Virus record (IMG/VR): IMGVR_UViG_3300023179_000035
Location: 32,001-96,000 of that record
DNA length: 64,000 nt
From: a virus
Reading direction: 5' to 3' (one strand)
Under the pieces are notes generated by a model. The model saw nothing but the letters and a program-made list of their open reading frames with translations, made no database searches and was not told the origin of the DNA. The position numbers and the translations under genes were made by a program. Positions 3,473 through 52,345 of this stretch are shown in pieces (the stretch's first letter is position 1; each line of letters begins with the position of its first letter).

Positions 3473-3840
3473 GGGGGCGAAATAGTTTCGACACGGCGGC
3501 GAACGCCGAGCCTGCAGGCGGGGGTGCACGAGGGTCCCCCTTCAAAACCCAAGTGACGTACAGATGCCAACGACAACGGCACCGCTGTTCTCGCCCTCGC
3601 GGCCTGAACAATGGGGTCCTAACACCTAGAAACAGAACGTTAGGAAAACGTCAGGGGACCAGACGTTAACTGGAACGCGTCAAAGTGCTGGACGTAAAAC
3701 GAAGTGCCGTCCGTGGTAGTCTAGGACGCTAAAGTTCGACTGTCTAATCCCGCCTGAGGATGAACAAATAGAAGGCCAAGCCTGTGAAAGATGGCTCGGA
3801 TTTTAAGTCGTGGACCCCGGGGCAGCGCCGGGCGCCTCCA
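3473..3840 (+). ncRNA. ssrA: tmRNA (one-piece), tag ANDNGTAVLALAA
   Basis: 5' GGGGGCGAAATAGTTTCGAC pairs with 3' CGCCTCC-A, giving the G3.U Ala identity pair. T-arm cccgg-GGCAGCG-ccggg (3816-3832). Tag ORF 3566-3607 ends LAA-TGA. CCA is not encoded. Confidence 0.93.
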
Positions 3841-3877
3841 CTATAACAAACAACTGCAGACAGCAATACATAACTTC

Positions 3878-31842: not shown

Positions 31843-32070
31843 ATGAAATCACAAAAGTTTATAGACATGCTGAGGTCCGACCCCAGCTATGCGGCCGCCC
31901 TGGCGGCCGCCCCAGACGAAGAGACCCGTCGCAAGGTGGCCGCCGCCGCTGAGTCACTAGCCCTAAAACTAGGAGAGGTCCTCGACCCGTTCATGGAGAC
32001 AGCCAGGGGCAACCCTGACTTCGCTCGGGCTGTCTCCAGCGTGATCGCCAAGGGCGGAGGGCAGAAATAG
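31843..32070 (+). CDS. Small hypothetical protein
   Basis: 75-aa Ala-rich ORF after the tape measure gene. Confidence 0.6.
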   Translation: MKSQKFIDMLRSDPSYAAALAAAPDEETRRKVAAAAESLALKLGEVLDPFMETARGNPDFARAVSSVIAKGGGQK

Positions 32071-41365: not shown

Positions 41366-41387
41366 GACAGTTTACTTGTCTGCGCAG

Positions 41388-41426
41388 ACGGGATGGGAGA
41401 ATTTGCTCCCATCCCGTTTGTTTTTT
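41388..41426 (+). terminator. Intrinsic terminator after the SSB gene
   Basis: acgggatgggag-aatttg-ctcccatcccgt followed by ttgtttttt. Confidence 0.85.
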
Positions 41427-41430
41427 CCAC

Positions 41431-41460
41431 TTGTCAAAGGAAATAACGACAGAGTAGGAT
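41431..41460 (+). promoter_or_regulatory. Sigma70-like promoter for the recA operon
   Basis: TTGTCA-N18-TAGGAT, between the SSB terminator and ATG 41470. Confidence 0.5.
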
Positions 41461-41469
41461 GTGACAACC

Positions 41470-42258
41470 ATGGCCAAGAAGCAAGAAGAGATGCAGCAGA
41501 AGAAGACCAAGTCTGAGGCTGACGACATAACGTCAGACCTCATAAAGGACCTCAACAAGCAGTTCCAGTCTCGGGTCGCCTTTAACCTCTCAGAGGACGC
41601 GGCCCCCACCATCGTCAAGCGCTGGATCCCGACCGGGTCGACGCTGTTGGACTACATCGTGTCCAACCGCCGCGACGGCGGCATGCCAGAGGGTCGTATC
41701 ATCGAGATCTCTGGAATGCCTTCTACGGGCAAGTCTCACATCGCCTTCCTGATGGCGAAGAATGTCCAGGCCATGGGCGGCCTCGTCGTCTATGTCGACA
41801 CAGAAAATGCAGTGCCCGTCGACAAGCTGGCAGCCATGGGCATCGACGTCCGCAAGCGCTTCGTCTACTGCGACACGCACTGCACAGAGGAGGTCTTCTC
41901 CATCATCGAGTCGACCATCACAAAGGCCAAGGCGGTCCTCGACAAGGACATCCCGATCCTCGTCGTGTGGGACTCTGTCGCCGCCACTTCGCCGAAGGCA
42001 GAACTGGAGGGCGAGTACGACCAGAACTCTGTGGGTCTCCAGGCCCGAACGATCTCCAAGGGCATGCGTAAGATCACTGGCGTCATTGGCCAGAACAACG
42101 TCACCCTCGTGTGCCTTAACCAACTCCGCTCTGCTATCGGCGTTACCCACGGCGACCCGATGTGTGTTGAACCAGCTTCAACTCGAATTAAGATCCGGTT
42201 CAGGCCAGATAGTCAGTTTGCAAAGCTGCTAGAAAGAAAGGAAAACAATGCTGAATAA
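41470..42258 (+). CDS. recA: RecA N-terminal part fused to a 31-aa N-intein
   Basis: IPTGS..LD, GGMPEGRIIEISGMPSTGKS (Walker A), VVWDSVAA (Walker B), QARTISKGMRK, NQLR..IGV, then GDPM|CVEPAST...*. Confidence 0.92.
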   Translation: MAKKQEEMQQKKTKSEADDITSDLIKDLNKQFQSRVAFNLSEDAAPTIVKRWIPTGSTLLDYIVSNRRDGGMPEGRIIEISGMPSTGKSHIAFLMAKNVQAMGGLVVYVDTENAVPVDKLAAMGIDVRKRFVYCDTHCTEEVFSIIESTITKAKAVLDKDIPILVVWDSVAATSPKAELEGEYDQNSVGLQARTISKGMRKITGVIGQNNVTLVCLNQLRSAIGVTHGDPMCVEPASTRIKIRFRPDSQFAKLLERKENNAE

Positions 42259-42601
42259 TGAATACATCGAAAAAGAAGTGAGTTTCTTAGAGTTGGCTTC
42301 GCTCTTAGGAGTCGAAGATTTCTCTGAAGAGACAGCGATTGACCTTGAGAACATGGGGATTCAAGTCGAATCACCCGCTGGCTTCTCTAGCGTAGATCAA
42401 TTTTACGTCAAGGGCAGGGCTGATGGGTACTCTCTAGGCGACTTGATTGCCAGCGGTGAGCACAGAACACTTGTGAACAACGAGTGGGTAAAGCTGAAGG
42501 ACAATCCTGAAGCCAAGAAATTAGGCAAGAGGATCGACGTCGTCGATATCTCTGTTCCTGATGGAAATGCTTACATCGCTAATGGCCATGTGAATCATAA
42601 T
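42163..42601 (+). mobile_element. Atypically split intein in recA (IntN 42163-42255, IntC 42248-42601)
   Basis: Block A C1-VEPASTRIKI then a stop. A separate overlapping ORF with AAAGGA RBS carries block B (ASGEH), block F (VVDISV) and block G (YIANGHVNHN|S). Confidence 0.85.
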
Positions 42602-42616
42602 TCATCACCGGGTGGT
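42248..42616 (+). CDS. recA: C-intein plus first RecA C-extein residues (SSPGG); exon 1 of the second recA gene piece
   Basis: ...NHN|SSPGG ends at the group I intron 5' splice site (U42616). Unspliced, the frame reads WN* at 42625. Confidence 0.85.
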
Positions 42617-43675
42617 TGGAACTAAGCTTAGCCTCCCGTAAAAAATTCCGTGAATTGCTGGAAACTCCTTAGAGCCTTCTTTGCTACAACGCGGTTGGTA
42701 ACGACGAACGTGAATGCAGAAAAAAAGAAGGATTGGACAATCAGCAGCCAAGCGCCAGAGCGATCTGGTGAAGGTTCAGAGACTAGAATGAGTAATCTTG
42801 CGATGAACTCCGTACCTATTCATCATGCAAGAAGAAAATTCCTCGAGCGCGGAACGACTAGTTGAGTGCAAGGTATGCAGTAAGTCCATGAAAGCAATCA
42901 CAAATTCTCACCTAAAGACGCACGGAATGACCACTAGCGAATATAGGGTCAAATTTCCGCATGCTGCATTTGGTGAGTTTTCTAGATTTGCTGATTGGAG
43001 AAACAGTGAAGAAAATAAGGCACATATGCGCGAGCAGAACAAGCGCATCTTTTCTTCACATGAAATTCGTGAAAAGAGGAAGACCAACCTTTTCAAAGCC
43101 ATGAAGACTGAGGAGTACAAGCAGGCGCTGTCAGCCGCCATGAAAGTGTACGCTCAAACTCCTCTTGGCAAGCAGAGGCTTTCAAATAAGCCTGTCACTG
43201 CAAGAATGAAGCTATCTAACTTTGAAAGGTGGGTCGATCAATTTGGGCTTGATGAGGCTGTAAGACGCCAATTGGATTGGCAGGCCAAGAATGTTTTGCC
43301 TGCTAAATCTCGGCACACAAAGCCTGAATTGATGTTGGCTGATATGCTGCGGTTGATGAACGTTAAGTTTATTGACCAATTCCCTCTTCCGCGGATGTAC
43401 TGCGACTTCTTCCTTCCTGACTACAACATGATTGTTGAGGTTGATGGCGATTATTGGCACGCAAATCCGTCGCTGTTTGCTCCAACTGATCTAATAGGCA
43501 AGAAGAAGACAATGGCACAAGAAATTTGGGCTAGGGATGCAGAAAGAACGAACAAGATCCAATCACTTGGATATAAAGTGATGAGAATTTGGTCGTCTGA
43601 TCTCAAAAAGACAACAGCCCAGCAACTGGTTGAAGATATAGTCCGGCACTGCGAGAAATTGCAGTGATTACACCG
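42617..43675 (+). mobile_element. Group I self-splicing intron in recA
   Basis: P1 pairs exon cgggtggt with gcctcccg (42631-42638), with U.G at the splice site. Core elements gaattgctggaaac, aatcagcagccaag, ttcagagacta (42775-42785) and aagatatagtcc (43633-43644). P9 cactgc..gaaa..gcagtg; terminal G at 43675. Splicing restores SSPGG|NAIPFHSSVR. Confidence 0.92.
42825..43667 (+). CDS. Intron-encoded Vsr/DUF559-like homing endonuclease
   Basis: N-terminal CKVC...HLKTH finger; TKPE, YCDFFLP...VEVDGDYWH and GYKVMRIW motifs; lies between the two P7 strands. Confidence 0.8.
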   Translation: MQEENSSSAERLVECKVCSKSMKAITNSHLKTHGMTTSEYRVKFPHAAFGEFSRFADWRNSEENKAHMREQNKRIFSSHEIREKRKTNLFKAMKTEEYKQALSAAMKVYAQTPLGKQRLSNKPVTARMKLSNFERWVDQFGLDEAVRRQLDWQAKNVLPAKSRHTKPELMLADMLRLMNVKFIDQFPLPRMYCDFFLPDYNMIVEVDGDYWHANPSLFAPTDLIGKKKTMAQEIWARDAERTNKIQSLGYKVMRIWSSDLKKTTAQQLVEDIVRHCEKLQ

Positions 43676-44149
43676 AATGCAATTCCATTTCATTCTTCAG
43701 TTAGAGTCAGGCTAGGCTCTGGCTACCCAGTCAAGGACAAGGCAGGCAACGTCATCGGTATCCACGTCACCGTGTCAGTCAAGAAGAACAAGGTCGCCCT
43801 TCCCTTCCGGAAGTGCGAGTTCGACATCCACTTTGGCCACGGAATCGTCGAGCACGAGTTCTTGTTCGACGAGCTGCGGTCGTGGTGTGACGCGAATGGT
43901 TCAGCCCAGGCGGGTGGTAAGCTAATCTCTATCTCAGGATCTGGCGCCTGGAAGGAGCTGCGAGTGTCGGACTCTAAGACAGGTGAGGTCCTGCAGGAGA
44001 AGAAGTTCTACAAGAGCGAGTTTGGCGACCTGTGGGCGTCTGAAGAGTTCGGTCCTGTGCTTCGAGACCTGGCTGAGAGGGCACTCTGCGTCGACCTATC
44101 TAGCTACAATCCAAACGAGACATCACCGGGAGAGAACGATGACGACTGA
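43676..44149 (+). CDS. recA: RecA C-terminal exon
   Basis: NAIPFHSSVRVRL, VKKNKVALPFRKCEFDIHFGHGI and SGAW motifs. Confidence 0.9.
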   Translation, partial: NAIPFHSSVRVRLGSGYPVKDKAGNVIGIHVTVSVKKNKVALPFRKCEFDIHFGHGIVEHEFLFDELRSWCDANGSAQAGGKLISISGSGAWKELRVSDSKTGEVLQEKKFYKSEFGDLWASEEFGPVLRDLAERALCVDLSSYNPNETSPGENDDD

Positions 44150-46983: not shown

Positions 46984-47841
46984 ATGGCAAACTACACCAA
47001 AGAAGAAGCAGCATCGGCATCGTTAGATTACTTTGGCGGGGACGAGCTGGCAGCCTCAGTCTTCGTCTCCAAGTACGCGCTCAGGGACGGCTCAGGCGAA
47101 CTCCTAGAGAAGACGCCCGCAGACATGCACCGGCGGCTCGCCAAGGAGTTCGCCCGCATCGAGGCGAAGTACCCGAACCCCCTGGGCGAGGAGGAGATCT
47201 TCGACTACCTCTCCAAGTGGGAGATCGTCCCGCAGGGGTCTCCGATGTCTGCGATGGGCAACGACTACAAGCTACAGTCACTGTCCAACTGCTTTGTCGT
47301 CGCATCGCCCCAGGACTCCTACGGTGGCATCCTCTTCACCGACCAGGAGCAGGCCCAGATCATGAAACGTCGTGGCGGAGTCGGCTTCGACATCTCCACC
47401 ATCCGCCCCAAGGGAATGCACACGGCCAATGCAGCCGGCACCACCGACGGCATCGGAGTCTTCATGGAGAGGTTCTCCAACACCTGTCGTGAGGTGGCGC
47501 AGGGCGGTCGACGCGGAGCTCTGATGTTGACTATCCATTGCTTTGAAGGATCTACATTGATTCTAACAGAATCAGGGTGGATGAAGATCGAAGATATTGT
47601 CAATAATCAGTATAGCGGAAGGGTTTGGACGCACGAGGGCTGGAAAGAAATAGAGGCATATCAGAAGTTTGAAGACAGCGATCTGTACGAAGTTGAAACC
47701 GAAAATGGGAAAACGATTAAAGTGACAGCTGATCACAAATTTGTCGTCAGGAACGTCGACACTGGAGAAGAGTATCTCAAAGAGATCAAGTTTGTCGACG
47801 TAGAAAAAGAAGAACTAGTTTTTTACGATGTCAGTTTCTAA
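46984..47841 (+). CDS. nrdJ: Class II (B12-dependent) ribonucleotide reductase, N-terminal part plus N-intein
   Basis: KYALRD, SLSNCFV, KRRGGVGFDISTIRP, VAQGGRRGALMLTIH|CFEGST... Confidence 0.88.
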   Translation: MANYTKEEAASASLDYFGGDELAASVFVSKYALRDGSGELLEKTPADMHRRLAKEFARIEAKYPNPLGEEEIFDYLSKWEIVPQGSPMSAMGNDYKLQSLSNCFVVASPQDSYGGILFTDQEQAQIMKRRGGVGFDISTIRPKGMHTANAAGTTDGIGVFMERFSNTCREVAQGGRRGALMLTIHCFEGSTLILTESGWMKIEDIVNNQYSGRVWTHEGWKEIEAYQKFEDSDLYEVETENGKTIKVTADHKFVVRNVDTGEEYLKEIKFVDVEKEELVFYDVSF

Positions 47842-48940
47842 CCGCAACAATGCGTATATTGCATGTCGATCATCTTGAAAAAAACATTTGAAACATTTGA
47901 CAGAATTTATTTTGAACTGCCACAAGAAGTTGAATACTTCGGAAAAAAATGCTCCAAATTTTCGATGAATTCACCCGCAAATTTGATTAGAGCACTAAGG
48001 GCAAATGGAAATCTTCTGTGTGACATTCTCGTGGGAAAAGAAGTGTATCGGGCAGATTGGCGATCGGCTAAAATAGAAAGGAAGAAAATTGTTGTCAACA
48101 AATTTGAAACGCGCGAATCGCGAGAAGCGGCAATTCAGCTTTTTAAATTGGAAAAAAAGGCAACAATGTCTTTTAGAGATTGCGCAATTTGCGGCGCTCG
48201 ATGCAAAAAATCAAAAAAGATGATTGGCTGCTGTAGCGACGCATGCTTTCAAAAAAAATTAGCCTTGAGGAATGAGTCTGTTTCAAAAACACACTGGTGC
48301 AAGTCTTCAAAATTTGAAGAGATCACTTTGAAGAGAGTCGCACGCAGAAAGAGAAATGATGAAACGCTAAGCAGGAAATATGCTGCATGGAACTCTGGGA
48401 AGACGGGCATCTATTCACTAGAAACGATCGAAAAAATCAAGGCTGCGACTAGATCGCAATTTCATAGAGAGATTTTCAAAAAAACATCAATAGAAAAACG
48501 CGTTGATGAGCTACTCAAAGAAGCTGGAATCAAATACAAGTATTCTTTCATACTGTGCGGTCGTCAATTTGATTTTGTCGTAAACGATAAATTTCTGATA
48601 GAGTTGCATGGGGATTTTTGGCATGGCAATCCAAAAATTTACGGTCCTGGCCTAAAAGATCTTAGAGATCACCAGATAATGAAGAGGCTTGACGACAAAA
48701 TTAAACAAAGAATTGCCTGCGAACAAGGCTACGTTTATGTTGAATTATGGGAGTACGACATAAACAACAACTGGGACACGGTCAAATCAAGAATTTTGGA
48801 GATGATAAATGGAAATTAAGAGCGCGACAAAAAGCACTTCGAAGATCAAGCGTGTTAGTCCCGCGGGCAGATCAACCAGCTATGACTTTACTGTAAAAGA
48901 CACGCATAGAATTCTTGCCAATGGGTTCTACACGTCGAAC
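47539..48940 (+). mobile_element. Split intein of nrdJ (IntN 47539-47838, IntC 48809-48940) with an intervening endonuclease gene
   Basis: IntN is 100 aa: CFEGSTLILT...IKVTADHKF...*. IntC is 44 aa: ...SYDFTV..TH..ANGFYTSN|C. The whole segment is AT-rich. Confidence 0.88.
47863..48819 (+). CDS. Free-standing Vsr/DUF559-like homing endonuclease between the split-intein halves
   Basis: CAICG...CCS finger, WNSGK..YS.ETIEKIK (NUMOD3-like), TSIE, FDFVV...IELHGDFWH and ELWEYD motifs. Confidence 0.8.
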   Translation: MSIILKKTFETFDRIYFELPQEVEYFGKKCSKFSMNSPANLIRALRANGNLLCDILVGKEVYRADWRSAKIERKKIVVNKFETRESREAAIQLFKLEKKATMSFRDCAICGARCKKSKKMIGCCSDACFQKKLALRNESVSKTHWCKSSKFEEITLKRVARRKRNDETLSRKYAAWNSGKTGIYSLETIEKIKAATRSQFHREIFKKTSIEKRVDELLKEAGIKYKYSFILCGRQFDFVVNDKFLIELHGDFWHGNPKIYGPGLKDLRDHQIMKRLDDKIKQRIACEQGYVYVELWEYDINNNWDTVKSRILEMINGN

Positions 48941-51900
48941 TGTTCCCACCCCGAGATCGAGACATTCATCAGCATCAAGCGTGACCTCAAGAAGGTGACC
49001 GGGGCCAACATCTCCATCCGCCTCACCGACGCCTTCATGCAGGCCGTCAAGGACGACTCAGAGTACACTCTCCGCTGGCCGGTGGAGTGCACGCCAGAGA
49101 CAGCCAAGATCACCAAGGTGGTGAAGGCCAAGGAGGTCTGGGACCAGATCATCGATGCCGCATGGACTTCCGCGGAGCCTGGTCTTCTCTTCTGGGACAC
49201 AGTTAAGAAGAACACTCCGACTGAGGCTTATGCCGATAAGGGATACAGCTCAGTCTCCACCAATCCGTGTCTTGCATATGACACACAAATTGCTGTTGCT
49301 GATGGGCGCGGCTACGTTTCTATCGGCGATCTAGCTGCTGCTGGTATGGATGTACCAGTCTACGCTCATGACAATGACACGGGCAGGATCGTTGTAAAGA
49401 CTATGAGAAACCCGCGCCTTACTGGCGAGAGCATGCCTGTCTATAGAGTTACGATTGAAGGTGGTCACACGTTCAGGGCGACCAGCAACCACACGATGAT
49501 ACTCCGCGATGGAACGCGGAAGACTGTGCAGGACCTGCAGCCGGGAGATCAACTATGGGTCGCCCAAAAGGCTCACGCCAAATTTAATGAAGTTCTGCCT
49601 GGCCTCCAAGCGACACAATCGCAGGATTATATCTGGGTCAAAGATTGCAACTCTAAGTCGTGGAAGGCTGAACACAGAATTCTTTGGGAAGCACACCATG
49701 ACCGAAAGTTGGGTCTGCATGAGGTTATCCACCATGTAGATTTCAACGCGTCCAACAACGCAGTTGACAACCTGCTCTTGATGAGCAAAGAAGATCATGA
49801 CGCCTACCATGCATCTTTAATCAAGGGCAAGAACAATCCGATCTTCAAGATCAAGTCAGATCCTGCAAGATTTGCTGAGTACTCGGCAAAGATGTCTCAG
49901 TCTACTGGCGGGCTGAACAACCCAAGAGCTTACGACATTAGCAACGAAGAGCTGATGAAACACATTGAAGCTCTTGTCACATCTCTTGGGCGTCGCCCAA
50001 GCGGCGGCGACTGGGAGAGCTATGCTGCGCAAAACTCATTGCCTAAGTTTTTGAACTCATTTAGGCTAGGTGGCAAGAAGTTCTCACAGGTCGCTTCCGA
50101 GCTTTCTGATAAGCTTGGTATTGCGAATGACCTAACGTCAGCTGACCCGCGAATGGCGGCTAGAGCCCTTGAGGCGCAAGAGTCTGGATACTCATGGCGT
50201 ATCTTGAACAACGAACTAGAAGTCGAGAAGAAGTGTGAGTGGTGCGAGGCTAACTTCTGGAGTGCATACGATAGGAGAGAGATTTCTTTCTGCGGTCACT
50301 CTTGCTCAAATTATTACGCAAACCGTAAGGCTGGCAAGAATGCTGCTCGTGCCGCTTCTCTTCAAAAGATGCACGAAGAGAGGGGCACGAAGAACAGAGT
50401 CGAACAGCTAAATGTCTACACCAAGCTGCGGTTTGAGCTTGGCAGAGACCCTCTGCTCGATGAGTGGGCAGACGCCTGCAAGTCGAACGAACTACCCGTA
50501 AGGCTGGGGACGAAGAACGGCTTTGCTTCTTGGAAGCAGCTGAAATCTGAGGCTTCGCTTCACAACCACCGTGTTGTGTCTGTCGAATTTGCTGGACACG
50601 AAGACGTGTACAACGGGACAGTGGATGACGTTCACACGCTACTGTTCAAAGTTGGACAAGAAAGTGTCAAAGGCTTACGCAACCCTATCGACGTAATAAT
50701 CGCAAGTGAACAATGCGGAGAGATCGTCCTGTCTCCATACGACTCCTGCAGGCTCCTCCTCCTCAATCTCAGTAAGTTTGTCAATGACCCCTTCACACCC
50801 TCTGCTAAGTTCGACCACGAGCGTTTCAGCAAGGCAGTGGTAGTAGCACAGCGCCTCATGGACGACCTCGTCGACCTGGAGCTAGAGGCCGTCGACAAGA
50901 TCGTCGCCAAGGTGAAGGATGATCCAGAGACGGAAGAGGTGAAGCGGTCTGAGGTCGGCCTGTGGACCAAGATCCGTGAGGCCGCGACCAACGGCCGCAG
51001 GACGGGGCTCGGAGTCACCGCTCTCGGCGATGCCCTGGCCTTCCTCAACGTCCGCTATGGCTCCCAGGAGTCGGTCGACAAGACAGAGGAGATCTACAAG
51101 GCTCTGGAGACGGGAGCCTACACCTCCACCATCACCATGGCGTCAGAGCGCGGGTCGTTCCCAGCCTTCTCACACGCAGCGGAGGCTTCTCATCCCTTCG
51201 TCCAGAAGGTGGTGGCAGCACTACCCCAGGACGTCCAGGACCTCTACAAGAAGGTCGGCCGTCGCAACATCGCACTCACCACGACAGCTCCTGCAGGATC
51301 AGTGTCCTGCCTCACTCAGACGACCAGCGGCATTGAGCCTGCCTTCCTCGTCTCCTATACCCGTCGCAAGAAGCTCACCTCCACCGACGTCACCTCACGG
51401 GTCGACTTCGTGGATCAGCTCGGCGACAAGTGGCAGGAGTACAAGGTCTACCACCACGGCTACAAGAAGTGGATGGAGGTCACAGGCAAGGGCGACGTGG
51501 TGGAGGAGTCTCCTTACTGGAAGGCGACGTCCAACGACGTGGACTGGCCCATGTCTGTCAAGCTCCAGGCTGCAGCCCAGAAGTGGGTGTGTCACTCCCT
51601 GTCCAAGACCTGCAACCTTCCAGCCGACACGACTCGTGAGACTGTCGCAGACGTCTACATGTCGGCGTGGGAGAGCGGCTGCAAGGGATTCACAGTATAC
51701 CGAGACGGCTGCCGCAGCGGCGTCCTGGTGGCCGAGGAGCCGAAGGCTGAGAAGAACGTTGACGTCGGGCAGCCCACGTCCATCCTAGAAAATCACGCGC
51801 CCAAGAGGCCCAAGGAACTGCCGTGCGACATACACAGAATAAACGTGAAGGGCTCTGGAGGCCCGGAGAGCTATCTCGTCTTGGTAGGCAAGCTCGATGG

Positions 51901-52345
51901 GATGCCATACGAGGTCTTCTGTGGGCTGTCGTCCCACGTCGAGGTACCCAAGAAGGTGAAGAGCGGCGTCCTCATCAAGAACGGCAAGAAGGACGGCCTG
52001 GCGACCTACAACCTCCAGATACCGCTAGGCGACGACGACTGCCTCCTCTTTAAGGACGTCGTCAACCTCTTCGACAACCCCAACTACGGCTCGTTCACCA
52101 GGACAATATCGCTGGCCCTCCGCCACGGCGTCCCCGTTTCGTACGTCTGTGAACAGCTCCAAAAGGACAAGCACAGCGACATGCAGAGCTTCTCAAGGGT
52201 CTTGTCTCGAGTCCTAAAGGGGTACATCCCAGACGGCACCAAGTCAGCTTCAGACAAGAAGTGCGGCAGCTGCGGCCTCGAGGGGCTCGTCTACAAGGAA
52301 GGGTGCGTCTCTTGCATCAACTGCGGCGCCAGCCGCTGCGCGTAA
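48809..52345 (+). CDS. nrdJ: C-intein plus nrdJ C-terminal part containing a second (cis) intein
   Basis: CSHPEIETFI, ANISI, AEPGLLF, STNP|intein|CGEI, RRTGLG, TTAPAGSVS, TSGIEP, KGFTVYRDGCR and a C-terminal Zn ribbon. Confidence 0.9.
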   Translation: MEIKSATKSTSKIKRVSPAGRSTSYDFTVKDTHRILANGFYTSNCSHPEIETFISIKRDLKKVTGANISIRLTDAFMQAVKDDSEYTLRWPVECTPETAKITKVVKAKEVWDQIIDAAWTSAEPGLLFWDTVKKNTPTEAYADKGYSSVSTNPCLAYDTQIAVADGRGYVSIGDLAAAGMDVPVYAHDNDTGRIVVKTMRNPRLTGESMPVYRVTIEGGHTFRATSNHTMILRDGTRKTVQDLQPGDQLWVAQKAHAKFNEVLPGLQATQSQDYIWVKDCNSKSWKAEHRILWEAHHDRKLGLHEVIHHVDFNASNNAVDNLLLMSKEDHDAYHASLIKGKNNPIFKIKSDPARFAEYSAKMSQSTGGLNNPRAYDISNEELMKHIEALVTSLGRRPSGGDWESYAAQNSLPKFLNSFRLGGKKFSQVASELSDKLGIANDLTSADPRMAARALEAQESGYSWRILNNELEVEKKCEWCEANFWSAYDRREISFCGHSCSNYYANRKAGKNAARAASLQKMHEERGTKNRVEQLNVYTKLRFELGRDPLLDEWADACKSNELPVRLGTKNGFASWKQLKSEASLHNHRVVSVEFAGHEDVYNGTVDDVHTLLFKVGQESVKGLRNPIDVIIASEQCGEIVLSPYDSCRLLLLNLSKFVNDPFTPSAKFDHERFSKAVVVAQRLMDDLVDLELEAVDKIVAKVKDDPETEEVKRSEVGLWTKIREAATNGRRTGLGVTALGDALAFLNVRYGSQESVDKTEEIYKALETGAYTSTITMASERGSFPAFSHAAEASHPFVQKVVAALPQDVQDLYKKVGRRNIALTTTAPAGSVSCLTQTTSGIEPAFLVSYTRRKKLTSTDVTSRVDFVDQLGDKWQEYKVYHHGYKKWMEVTGKGDVVEESPYWKATSNDVDWPMSVKLQAAAQKWVCHSLSKTCNLPADTTRETVADVYMSAWESGCKGFTVYRDGCRSGVLVAEEPKAEKNVDVGQPTSILENHAPKRPKELPCDIHRINVKGSGGPESYLVLVGKLDGMPYEVFCGLSSHVEVPKKVKSGVLIKNGKKDGLATYNLQIPLGDDDCLLFKDVVNLFDNPNYGSFTRTISLALRHGVPVSYVCEQLQKDKHSDMQSFSRVLSRVLKGYIPDGTKSASDKKCGSCGLEGLVYKEGCVSCINCGASRCA
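49268..50713 (+). mobile_element. Cis intein (482 aa) with HNH endonuclease, at the NP|CGE catalytic Cys
   Basis: Starts CLAYDTQIAVADG; block B ATSNH; HNH EHR...IHHVDFNASNN..DNL...H; block F VYNGTVDDVH; ends SEQ|C. Confidence 0.88.

Follow-up and report, generated by a model that had tools for sequence, protein, structure and literature searches.

A split mini-intein and a group I intron stacked 15 nt apart in the UvsX/RecA-like recombinase gene of a lake phage

We analyzed one 64,000-nucleotide (nt) stretch of viral DNA, positions 32,001 to 96,000 of the IMG/VR record IMGVR_UViG_3300023179_000035, which is referred to as the window. The UvsX/RecA-like recombinase gene of this lake phage occupies positions 41470-44149 of the window; it contains one split mini-intein and one group I intron, which are separated by only 15 nt. 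An earlier note, made from the letters alone, had described the gene (as recA) in three coding pieces, and both the list of open reading frames (ORFs) and the sequence agree with this anatomy. The features of the gene are as follows, with IntN and IntC being the intein's N-terminal and C-terminal fragments.

41470-42162, plus strand: N-extein of the UvsX/RecA-like recombinase, 231 amino acids (aa), C-terminal GDPM
42163-42258, plus strand: IntN, 31 aa, beginning with Cys1, plus stop (coding 42163-42255, stop codon 42256-42258)
42238-42242, plus strand: Shine-Dalgarno-like AAGGA for the IntC ORF, 5 nt before the ATG at 42248
42248-42601, plus strand: IntC, 118 aa, ending in HN; ATG at 42248, in the +1 frame, with an 11-nt overlap with the IntN ORF
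42602-42616, plus strand: mini-exon of five codons (SSPGG); its last 7 nt are the 5' strand of intron helix P1
42617-43675, plus strand: group I intron, 1059 nt, with the terminal G at 43675
42825-43667, plus strand: predicted homing endonuclease, 280 aa, whose ORF runs through P3', P8, P7' and P9
43676-44149, plus strand: exon 2, encoding the C-extein, 157 aa plus stop, N-terminal NAIPFH

The two large coding pieces both belong to the recombinase. The N-extein matches the Pfam RecA profile (5.4e-38) and PHROG 97, a UvsX-like recombinase family (1.8e-56); exon 2 matches positions 206-261 of the Pfam RecA profile (3.1e-08). For comparison we used the best 80 of 595 relatives in IMG/VR, which are 67-76% identical to the N-extein. 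Among these best 80, 75 are uninterrupted and read GDPx-xxPGG-x(A/S)xP(F/Y), with the same spacing as the joined exons of the window, GDPM-SSPGG-NAIPFH. The mini-exon is collinear with xxPGG, exon 2 is also collinear with the relatives, and the proposal that the joined pieces rebuild the L2-loop region is well borne out by the 75 uninterrupted genes. In the unspliced frame, the mini-exon continues into the intron as WN followed by a stop. By the logic of the sequence, both RNA splicing and protein trans-splicing would be required to produce the enzyme.

The residues expected of a splicing intein are conserved in both fragments. The N-terminal nucleophile, a Cys encoded at 42163 directly after GDPM, is invariant in all 12 aligned IntN fragments, and the block-B His (H72), H117 and N118 of IntC are invariant in nine of nine sequences. 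At +1, the window has Ser, and all eight homologues have Thr. IntC matches the intein C-terminal region profile TIGR01443 with 17.1 bits (cut-off 15.6); the Pfam Intein_splicing match falls below its cut-off. Besides the window's own near-identical entry, protein searches with the IntC ORF returned eight stand-alone homologues, which are 53-63% identical and 121-150 aa in length. All eight start at a common point and end with HN, TTPGG and 2-9 further residues; because they share both start and ending, the "IntC plus five codons" ORF itself is conserved. Two entries, P0008 and P0009, were considered as longer or contiguous forms and rejected, their extra N-termini being out-of-frame read-through upstream of the true start. 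The Shine-Dalgarno-like sequence and ATG are present at the junction of eight other split alleles displayed. In three close pairs with unsaturated synonymous change, the ratio of nonsynonymous to synonymous substitution rates (dN/dS) is 0.03-0.10 for IntN and IntC.

For the structural analysis, the HINT fold was examined on a contiguous relative, L093; for the window, the only model is that of the IntN/IntC complex. The AlphaFold model of L093 has a predicted local distance difference test score (pLDDT) of 94.4, and the window's split site falls in the loop following the helix of residues 18-27. In a Foldseek search of the PDB with this model, every match listed, to rank 48, is an intein or an intein-like HINT domain. 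The top match is VidaL (6vgv), a natural split intein with short IntN; the second is an engineered, atypically split intein. The IntN/IntC complex of the window scored 0.76, compared to 0.01 for the best control, with the partner pLDDT at ~71 and at least 95% of contacts agreeing between runs; the mark used for this score had been calibrated: 58 of 80 solved complexes attain it, as do 2 of 110 mismatched pairs. By the position of its split, the intein belongs to the second type of atypical split, with the break after helix α1, and trans-splicing is predicted for it.

The split at the IntN/IntC junction is not an assembly error, which the earlier note had considered in the form of one continuous frame over 41470-42625. 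Three Logan contigs, X2 rec2 (42198-42423), X3 rec9 (41900-42498) and X6 rec17 (42128-42637), which come from runs of two other studies, span 42248-42258 with 0 gaps, and the only indel listed in any contig aligned to the locus is at 42824. The intein is split at the same junction in 13 of the 17 distinct alleles described below, so that it is truly split, as had been proposed. Among these 13, IntC lies in the +1 frame relative to IntN in ten and in the -1 frame in two, and an in-frame stop separates the fragments in one; IntC has its own start in each. With three different frame relations, and a separate IntC start in every allele, the splits do not fit any single recoding mechanism.

The intron boundaries given in the earlier note, 42617-43675, were found again here from sequence and comparison. 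Rfam RF00028 matches over 42596-43665 with 55 bits (gathering score 50, E 2e-12) and was recovered in a scan of the whole window. The helices of the group I intron, named by their two strands, are as follows.

42610-16/42631-37, plus strand: P1
42646-52/42848-54, plus strand: P3
42656-60/42742-46, plus strand: P4
42675-82/42724-31, plus strand: P5a
42755-59/42764-68, plus strand: P6
42781-85/43639-43, plus strand: P7
42855-64/43623-32, plus strand: P8
43647-52/43661-66, plus strand: P9

Covariation was analyzed on an alignment (A3) of the 5' parts of 14 related introns. RNAalifold found P1, which pairs the last exon bases with the internal guide, together with P3, P4, P5, P5a-c and P6. In all 14 introns, the 5' splice site is marked by a U.G pair, and the exon-guide pair at the third base of the Pro codon covaries (GC in 12, AU in one and UA in one). 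There are 54 predicted pairs, 25 of which changed on both sides. As many as 96.8% of the paired cells can pair, compared to 84.3 +/- 0.8% in shuffles, and none of 500 shuffles reached the observed pairing or covariation; controls with the pairing slid gave 36-44%. Outside that alignment, compensatory change is seen in all seven pairs of P9, P7 is invariant across the introns compared, and the terminal G is present in all 12 complete introns. In all 12 introns, P8 closes over the endonuclease ORF as a helix of 7-10 bp, diverse as its sequences are. Two candidate pairings were set aside. The P1 of the Rfam alignment, located further upstream, was dropped for GGGUGGU/GCCUCCC, which was independently found by RNAalifold, covaries and gives the in-frame GG/N junction; one RNAalifold helix at columns 194-200/208-215 of A3 shows no covariation, conflicts with P7 and was left uncounted. 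Resemblance to annotated phage DNA is limited to the intron core, 42635-42798, with 141 records of 60-80% identity; these lie within or next to interrupted genes in phages of Bacillus, Staphylococcus, Lactococcus and Vibrio.

The intron-encoded protein has a region resembling a Ros/MucR zinc finger at the N-terminus and a predicted Vsr-like nuclease at the C-terminus. DUF559 is matched above its cut-off (2.6e-09), while Vsr (2.7e-05; 24.4 against 27) and ROS_MUCR (3.8e-05) are below theirs. In the PDB, it matches E. coli Vsr (1cw0) with an E value of 0.0015; in this match, as read by eye, one Asp is opposite the metal-binding Asp of Vsr and one His is opposite His69. The structure of I-Bth0305I is absent from its five PDB sequence matches (E <= 1). 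On sequence, we provisionally assign the protein to the Vsr-like ("EDxHD") homing endonucleases, as these are set out in the parts of PMC2677866 and PMC3239194 consulted. Full-length homologues are present in eight other distinct intron alleles (L084, L087, L090, L097, L107, L115, L116 and L119), and the dN/dS is 0.10-0.20 where synonymous change is unsaturated. Between L087 and L091, the 3' end and core scaffold of the intron are conserved and the endonuclease ORFs are diverged (intron ~180-1050); there, the ORF appears to have been exchanged as a module of its own. Free-standing homologues, 40-42% identical, are located directly after uninterrupted uvsX in L072 (6243-7031; locus L072/L073) and L067 (2058-2858), with no intron core motifs near either of them. 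They are possible sources of the intron ORF, or intronless homing elements.

To survey the allelic states, loci were collected by scans with the IntC alignment, 19 usable ones from viruses and 16 from metagenomes, and these, together with the window (WIN), make up 17 distinct alleles. Four of the 23 viral loci (L100-L103) were dropped, as they match only the last ~20 intein residues; L119 is without the N side, and L111 and L064 are without the 3' side. The 17 alleles are distributed as follows.

Adjacent split plus intron with endonuclease: nine alleles (WIN, L084, L087, L090, L097, L107, L111, L115, L116)
Adjacent split plus ORF-less intron, with remnants of ORF deletion: three alleles (L081, L095, L096)
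Adjacent split, no intron: one allele (L117)
Contiguous intein, no intron: two alleles (L093, L099)
Fractured, an endonuclease gene separating IntC from an 18-aa IntN, no intron: one allele (L098)
N side off the contig: one allele (L119)

Hence the intron is present in 12 of the 13 alleles with an adjacent split. As for the states that the earlier note had suggested looking for, empty, intein-only and intron-only, all three exist.

Some relatives carry further elements. In L070 (4330-5250) and L079 (4470-5890), a different intein lies six codons upstream, at IG/V. Its very short IntN, of 14 aa, ends at a stop, and an ORF for a Vsr-like endonuclease stands before IntC; the gene is fractured, and its split position is like that of VidaL. 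L115 (1650-4400) holds three elements within 12 codons of one uvsX allele. The first, a fractured intein at IG/V, comprises an IntN of 14 aa and an endonuclease gene of the Vsr-like family. The middle ORF consists of IntC1, seven extein residues (TMYGDPT) and IntN2; the last part consists of IntC2, TTPGG and the endonuclease-bearing intron, and one in-frame stop separates IntN2 from IntC2. Judged from the sequence, the L115 recombinase would need trans-splicing twice and RNA splicing once. Counting the intein and intron sites of the window, the recA intron site of Bacillus phage 0305phi8-36 and the IG/V site of L070, L079 and L115, at least four insertion sites lie in the L2-loop coding region.

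Both elements differ from the host gene in composition. The GC content is 0.449 in the intein and 0.449 in the intron, compared to 0.596 and 0.57 in the two exteins, and drops from ~0.58-0.62 to 0.41-0.50 across 42100-43700; an equal gap is present in the other high-GC hosts L097, L111 and L115. The GC content at third codon positions (GC3) of the N-extein is 0.82 right up to the intein, and the following feature begins directly after the intron.

43676-43705, plus strand: likely co-conversion tract; the first 10 exon-2 codons end in A or T (GC3 string 0000000000)

By our own arithmetic, the chance of 10 such codons is about 1e-5 to 4e-8, and the tract reads as co-conversion from a low-GC donor. 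One block, made up of intein, mini-exon and intron, is 97-100% identical between L095 and L096; it starts just inside the intein and ends ~40 nt before the 3' end of the intron, and the exteins around it are mostly 57-87% identical. Such a block in diverged exteins indicates that intein and intron moved together. In the extein tree (76 rows), the group-B and intein-only alleles form one clade, and the group-A alleles (WIN, L081 and L107) are dispersed among empty ones. In the IntC tree, group A is supported (100/97) but hardly anything else is; group B is left without resolution, seven of 14 inner branches being open.

Taken together, these observations indicate that the locus probably carries two stacked selfish elements of known kinds, five codons apart at an insertion hot spot, the L2 DNA-binding loop region, which are expressed as outlined here and which may be copied as one cassette and yet are separable. 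The anatomy, the conservation of the catalytic residues, the ribozyme structure and the docking of the fragments are supported by sequence, comparison and models. In our scheme, a single transcript would cover 41470-44149, and the group I intron would splice itself out, joining the SSPGG codons to those of NAIPFH. ORF1 would yield the N-extein with IntN, whereas the overlapping, Shine-Dalgarno-led ORF2 would yield IntC-SSPGG-C-extein (280 aa), presumably by coupled translation. The 31-aa IntN would then dock onto IntC and complete the HINT fold, and protein trans-splicing would release a 393-aa recombinase. As for inheritance, the nuclease-less split mini-intein lies close to a nuclease-bearing intron, and gene conversion could copy both as one cassette; recombination also separates the intein from the intron.

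Several points weigh against this reading or parts of it. The sequencing runs searched for the locus gave DNA contigs only, with no RNA run among the matches. The score of the IntN/IntC complex may reflect memory of, or likeness to, solved inteins. At least two alleles have the intron only (L064, and a second in X3 rec10 and X6 rec18), and L117 is split without any intron. The shared block of L095 and L096 was not moved by a nuclease of its own, since its intron is ORF-less. Co-transfer is also not the rule: L087 and L091 are 92% identical in the intein, 87% in the intron core and 67% in the endonuclease, and L091 and L097 are 96% identical in the intron core, 82% in the endonuclease and 62% in the intein, a case of the intron moving without the intein, with the breakpoint within the last ~18 nt of the intein. 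The approximately unbiased (AU) test rejects group-A monophyly (p 0.0039) for a group that was named post hoc, from the tree itself. Finally, the GGT GGT codons of the mini-exon are uninformative on the donor, because P1 constrains them. The suggestion of the earlier note that the intron endonuclease might co-mobilise the split intein therefore stands in part: the block shared by L095 and L096 fits it, but other pairs show intron without intein and intein without endonuclease.

A stronger form of this suggestion, which we put forward tentatively and hold to be rather doubtful, is that intein, mini-exon and intron are one homing cassette, whose nuclease would cut naive uvsX either at the intein site or in the 15 bp between it and the intron site, so that repair would copy both elements. 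If true, this would be the first intein dependent for its spread on an intron-encoded nuclease, and it would account for the intron in 12 of the 13 adjacent-split alleles. That the cassette is obligate, the nuclease cutting at the intein site, which is 15 bp upstream of the intron site, or close by, and homing always copying both with the intein as a passenger, is unlikely. It is in keeping with the block transfer in L095/L096, with the joint similarity of intein and intron core in L087/L091, and with group A, in which the carriers with the N-extein in view (WIN, L081 and L107) belong to separate extein lineages and are all double. In addition, I-Bth0305I has a footprint of ~60 bp and cuts at its intron site, according to the part of PMC3239194 consulted, and a spacing of 15 bp would fit inside such a footprint. 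However, the intron moved without the intein in L091/L097 and intron-only alleles exist; moreover, the N-terminal DNA-binding region of the window nuclease is unlike that of I-Bth0305I.

A regulatory role for the pair is similarly improbable. The earlier note had proposed an AND gate, in which intron splicing tunes the amount of active recombinase and the unspliced product, IntC-SSPGGWN, diverts the N-extein into a truncated dead end. That product is a logical consequence of the sequence, and the IntC homologues from intron alleles all stop 2-9 codons into the intron, which makes the short product a conserved possibility; early stops, however, are usual inside phage group I introns. Both splicing steps are logically required, which is the part of the proposal that holds, and split and intron go together in 12 of the 13 adjacent-split alleles. 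As an evolved function, the gate finds no support: the elements are separable and exchanged independently, like parasites; 75 of the best 80 of 595 relatives carry neither; intron-only, intein-only and split-without-intron (L117) alleles all exist; and the low GC content with the co-conversion tract points to a recent foreign arrival in the window genome. Given separable modules, many element-free relatives and foreign composition, parasitism fits better than regulation. The weakest alternative, pseudogene decay, an artefactual split or ribosomal recoding that leaves the intein effectively contiguous, could appeal to the 11-nt ORF overlap, where one indel would fuse IntN and IntC, and to the 7-nt length difference at the junction between contiguous L093 and split L084, but is highly improbable against an indel-free junction in three independent contigs, three frame relations with own starts among the split alleles, strong purifying selection on the intein fragments, covariation in the intron and intact exteins.

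The surroundings of the recombinase gene contain two further features.

41384-41421, plus strand: terminator-like hairpin closing the upstream single-stranded DNA (ssDNA)-binding protein gene; 16-pair stem followed by a T run
41431-41460, plus strand: weak promoter-like site before the recombinase start, TTGTCA-18-TAGGAT, 9/12 matches

The upstream ORF matches PHROG families of ssDNA-binding proteins. The promoter-like site is a consensus match only, from a scan that gave two sites compared to 2.3 expected in shuffles. Its -10 hexamer ends 9 nt before the recombinase ATG (41431-41470); so short a distance means, given the consensus match only, that the mRNA could be nearly leaderless. Within the recombinase gene, on the same strand, there are only weak terminator-like hairpins of 5-8 pairs; together with the strong hairpin upstream, this is the ground for proposing a single transcript. 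Elsewhere, the window encodes a phage transfer-messenger RNA at 3473-3843 (Rfam RF00023, 64.2 bits, gathering score 47).

Among known systems, fractured genes are close to the locus. In these, the halves of a split intein flank a free-standing endonuclease gene, and the published model allows for the endonuclease to be lost, upon which the halves are adjacent, as at the gp41-7 locus (PMC2677866, seen in part). Like the genes covered there, the window has a phage replication or repair gene, a split intein and an endonuclease of the Vsr-like family. Different from them, its endonuclease lies not between the halves but in a ribozyme 15 nt downstream, and a step of RNA splicing is added. True fractured forms are found in L098 at the window's own intein site and in the window's own nrdJ. 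The latter, a fractured nrdJ-type reductase at 46984-52345, has an N-piece with ~100-aa IntN and a stop at 47841, a free-standing Vsr-like endonuclease of 318 aa at 47863-48819, and an IntC that heads a 1178-aa ORF, which also seems to hold an HNH intein. Its endonuclease is 27% identical to the intron endonuclease over the nuclease domain.

Natural atypical split inteins have an IntN of 15-35 aa and are split after strand β2 or after helix α1, the "S2" site, in the portion of PMC13014065 available to us. The window intein resembles the short-IntN split inteins in its 31-aa IntN, the split in the loop after the helix, the lack of an endonuclease domain and the origin in phage metagenomes. It differs in that its ORFs overlap and that IntC carries only five C-extein codons before the intron, and its trans-splicing is predicted. 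VidaL (6vgv) is the best structural match, yet the identity is 12% and the site in the host gene differs.

The recA gene of Bacillus phage 0305phi8-36 has a group I intron with I-Bth0305I, which is made of a Vsr-like nuclease and a separate DNA-binding part (PMC3239194 and PMC2677866, both in part). Judged from those parts, both loci have a group I intron in the part of a phage recA-type gene that encodes the L2 loop, and the protein encoded in each intron is Vsr-like. In NC_009760 (160638-164222, minus strand; L123), the intron interrupts FGD/PNVTTGGRA between the GD and P codons, 21 nt (seven codons) upstream of the window intron site and 6 nt upstream of the window intein site. The endonuclease ORF is placed in the P1 loop there, as stated in the part of PMC2677866 seen, whereas it runs from P3' to P9 in the window. 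The N-terminal region is zinc-finger-like in the window endonuclease and NUMOD in I-Bth0305I, and the sections of PMC3239194 and PMC2677866 consulted describe no intein beside the 0305phi8-36 intron.

Introns and inteins can reportedly share one gene, which Derbyshire and Belfort are said to have called "intron-intein coincidence" in 1998. For help between elements, T4 mobE mobilises a defunct nrdB intron in trans (PMC2790892), and neighbour-element effects are reported for neighbouring MCM inteins (PMC10643990), each source being seen in part. As far as those excerpts go, these systems are like what is proposed for the window in that elements without a working nuclease persist through conversion triggered by the nuclease of a neighbour. 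They differ in arrangement: in T4 a free-standing nuclease helps an intron, and in MCM there are two nuclease-bearing inteins, neither being a split intein and an intron at 15 nt.

The portions of the literature covered, including parts of PMC2677866, PMC3239194 and PMC2814812, describe no split intein beside a group I intron; that coverage is of papers without their supplements, among which Figure S3 of PMC2677866 deals with the recA introns and may be relevant. Within the same coverage, fractured genes, short-IntN split inteins, recA introns with Vsr-like nucleases and homing in trans are each already described. A single essential phage gene in which cis-splicing of RNA and trans-splicing of protein come together within 15 nt is apparently undescribed in the literature searched. 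The family spans empty, intron-only, intein-only (contiguous, fractured or split), double and triple alleles with clear module boundaries. It thus offers a natural system for the persistence and spread of nuclease-less inteins, for the origin of split inteins, given the 7-nt length difference between split and contiguous forms, and for mutual help or hindrance among closely packed selfish elements. The 31-aa/118-aa split intein family with its many natural variants may be of interest as well for protein engineering, where inteins with a short IntN are used.

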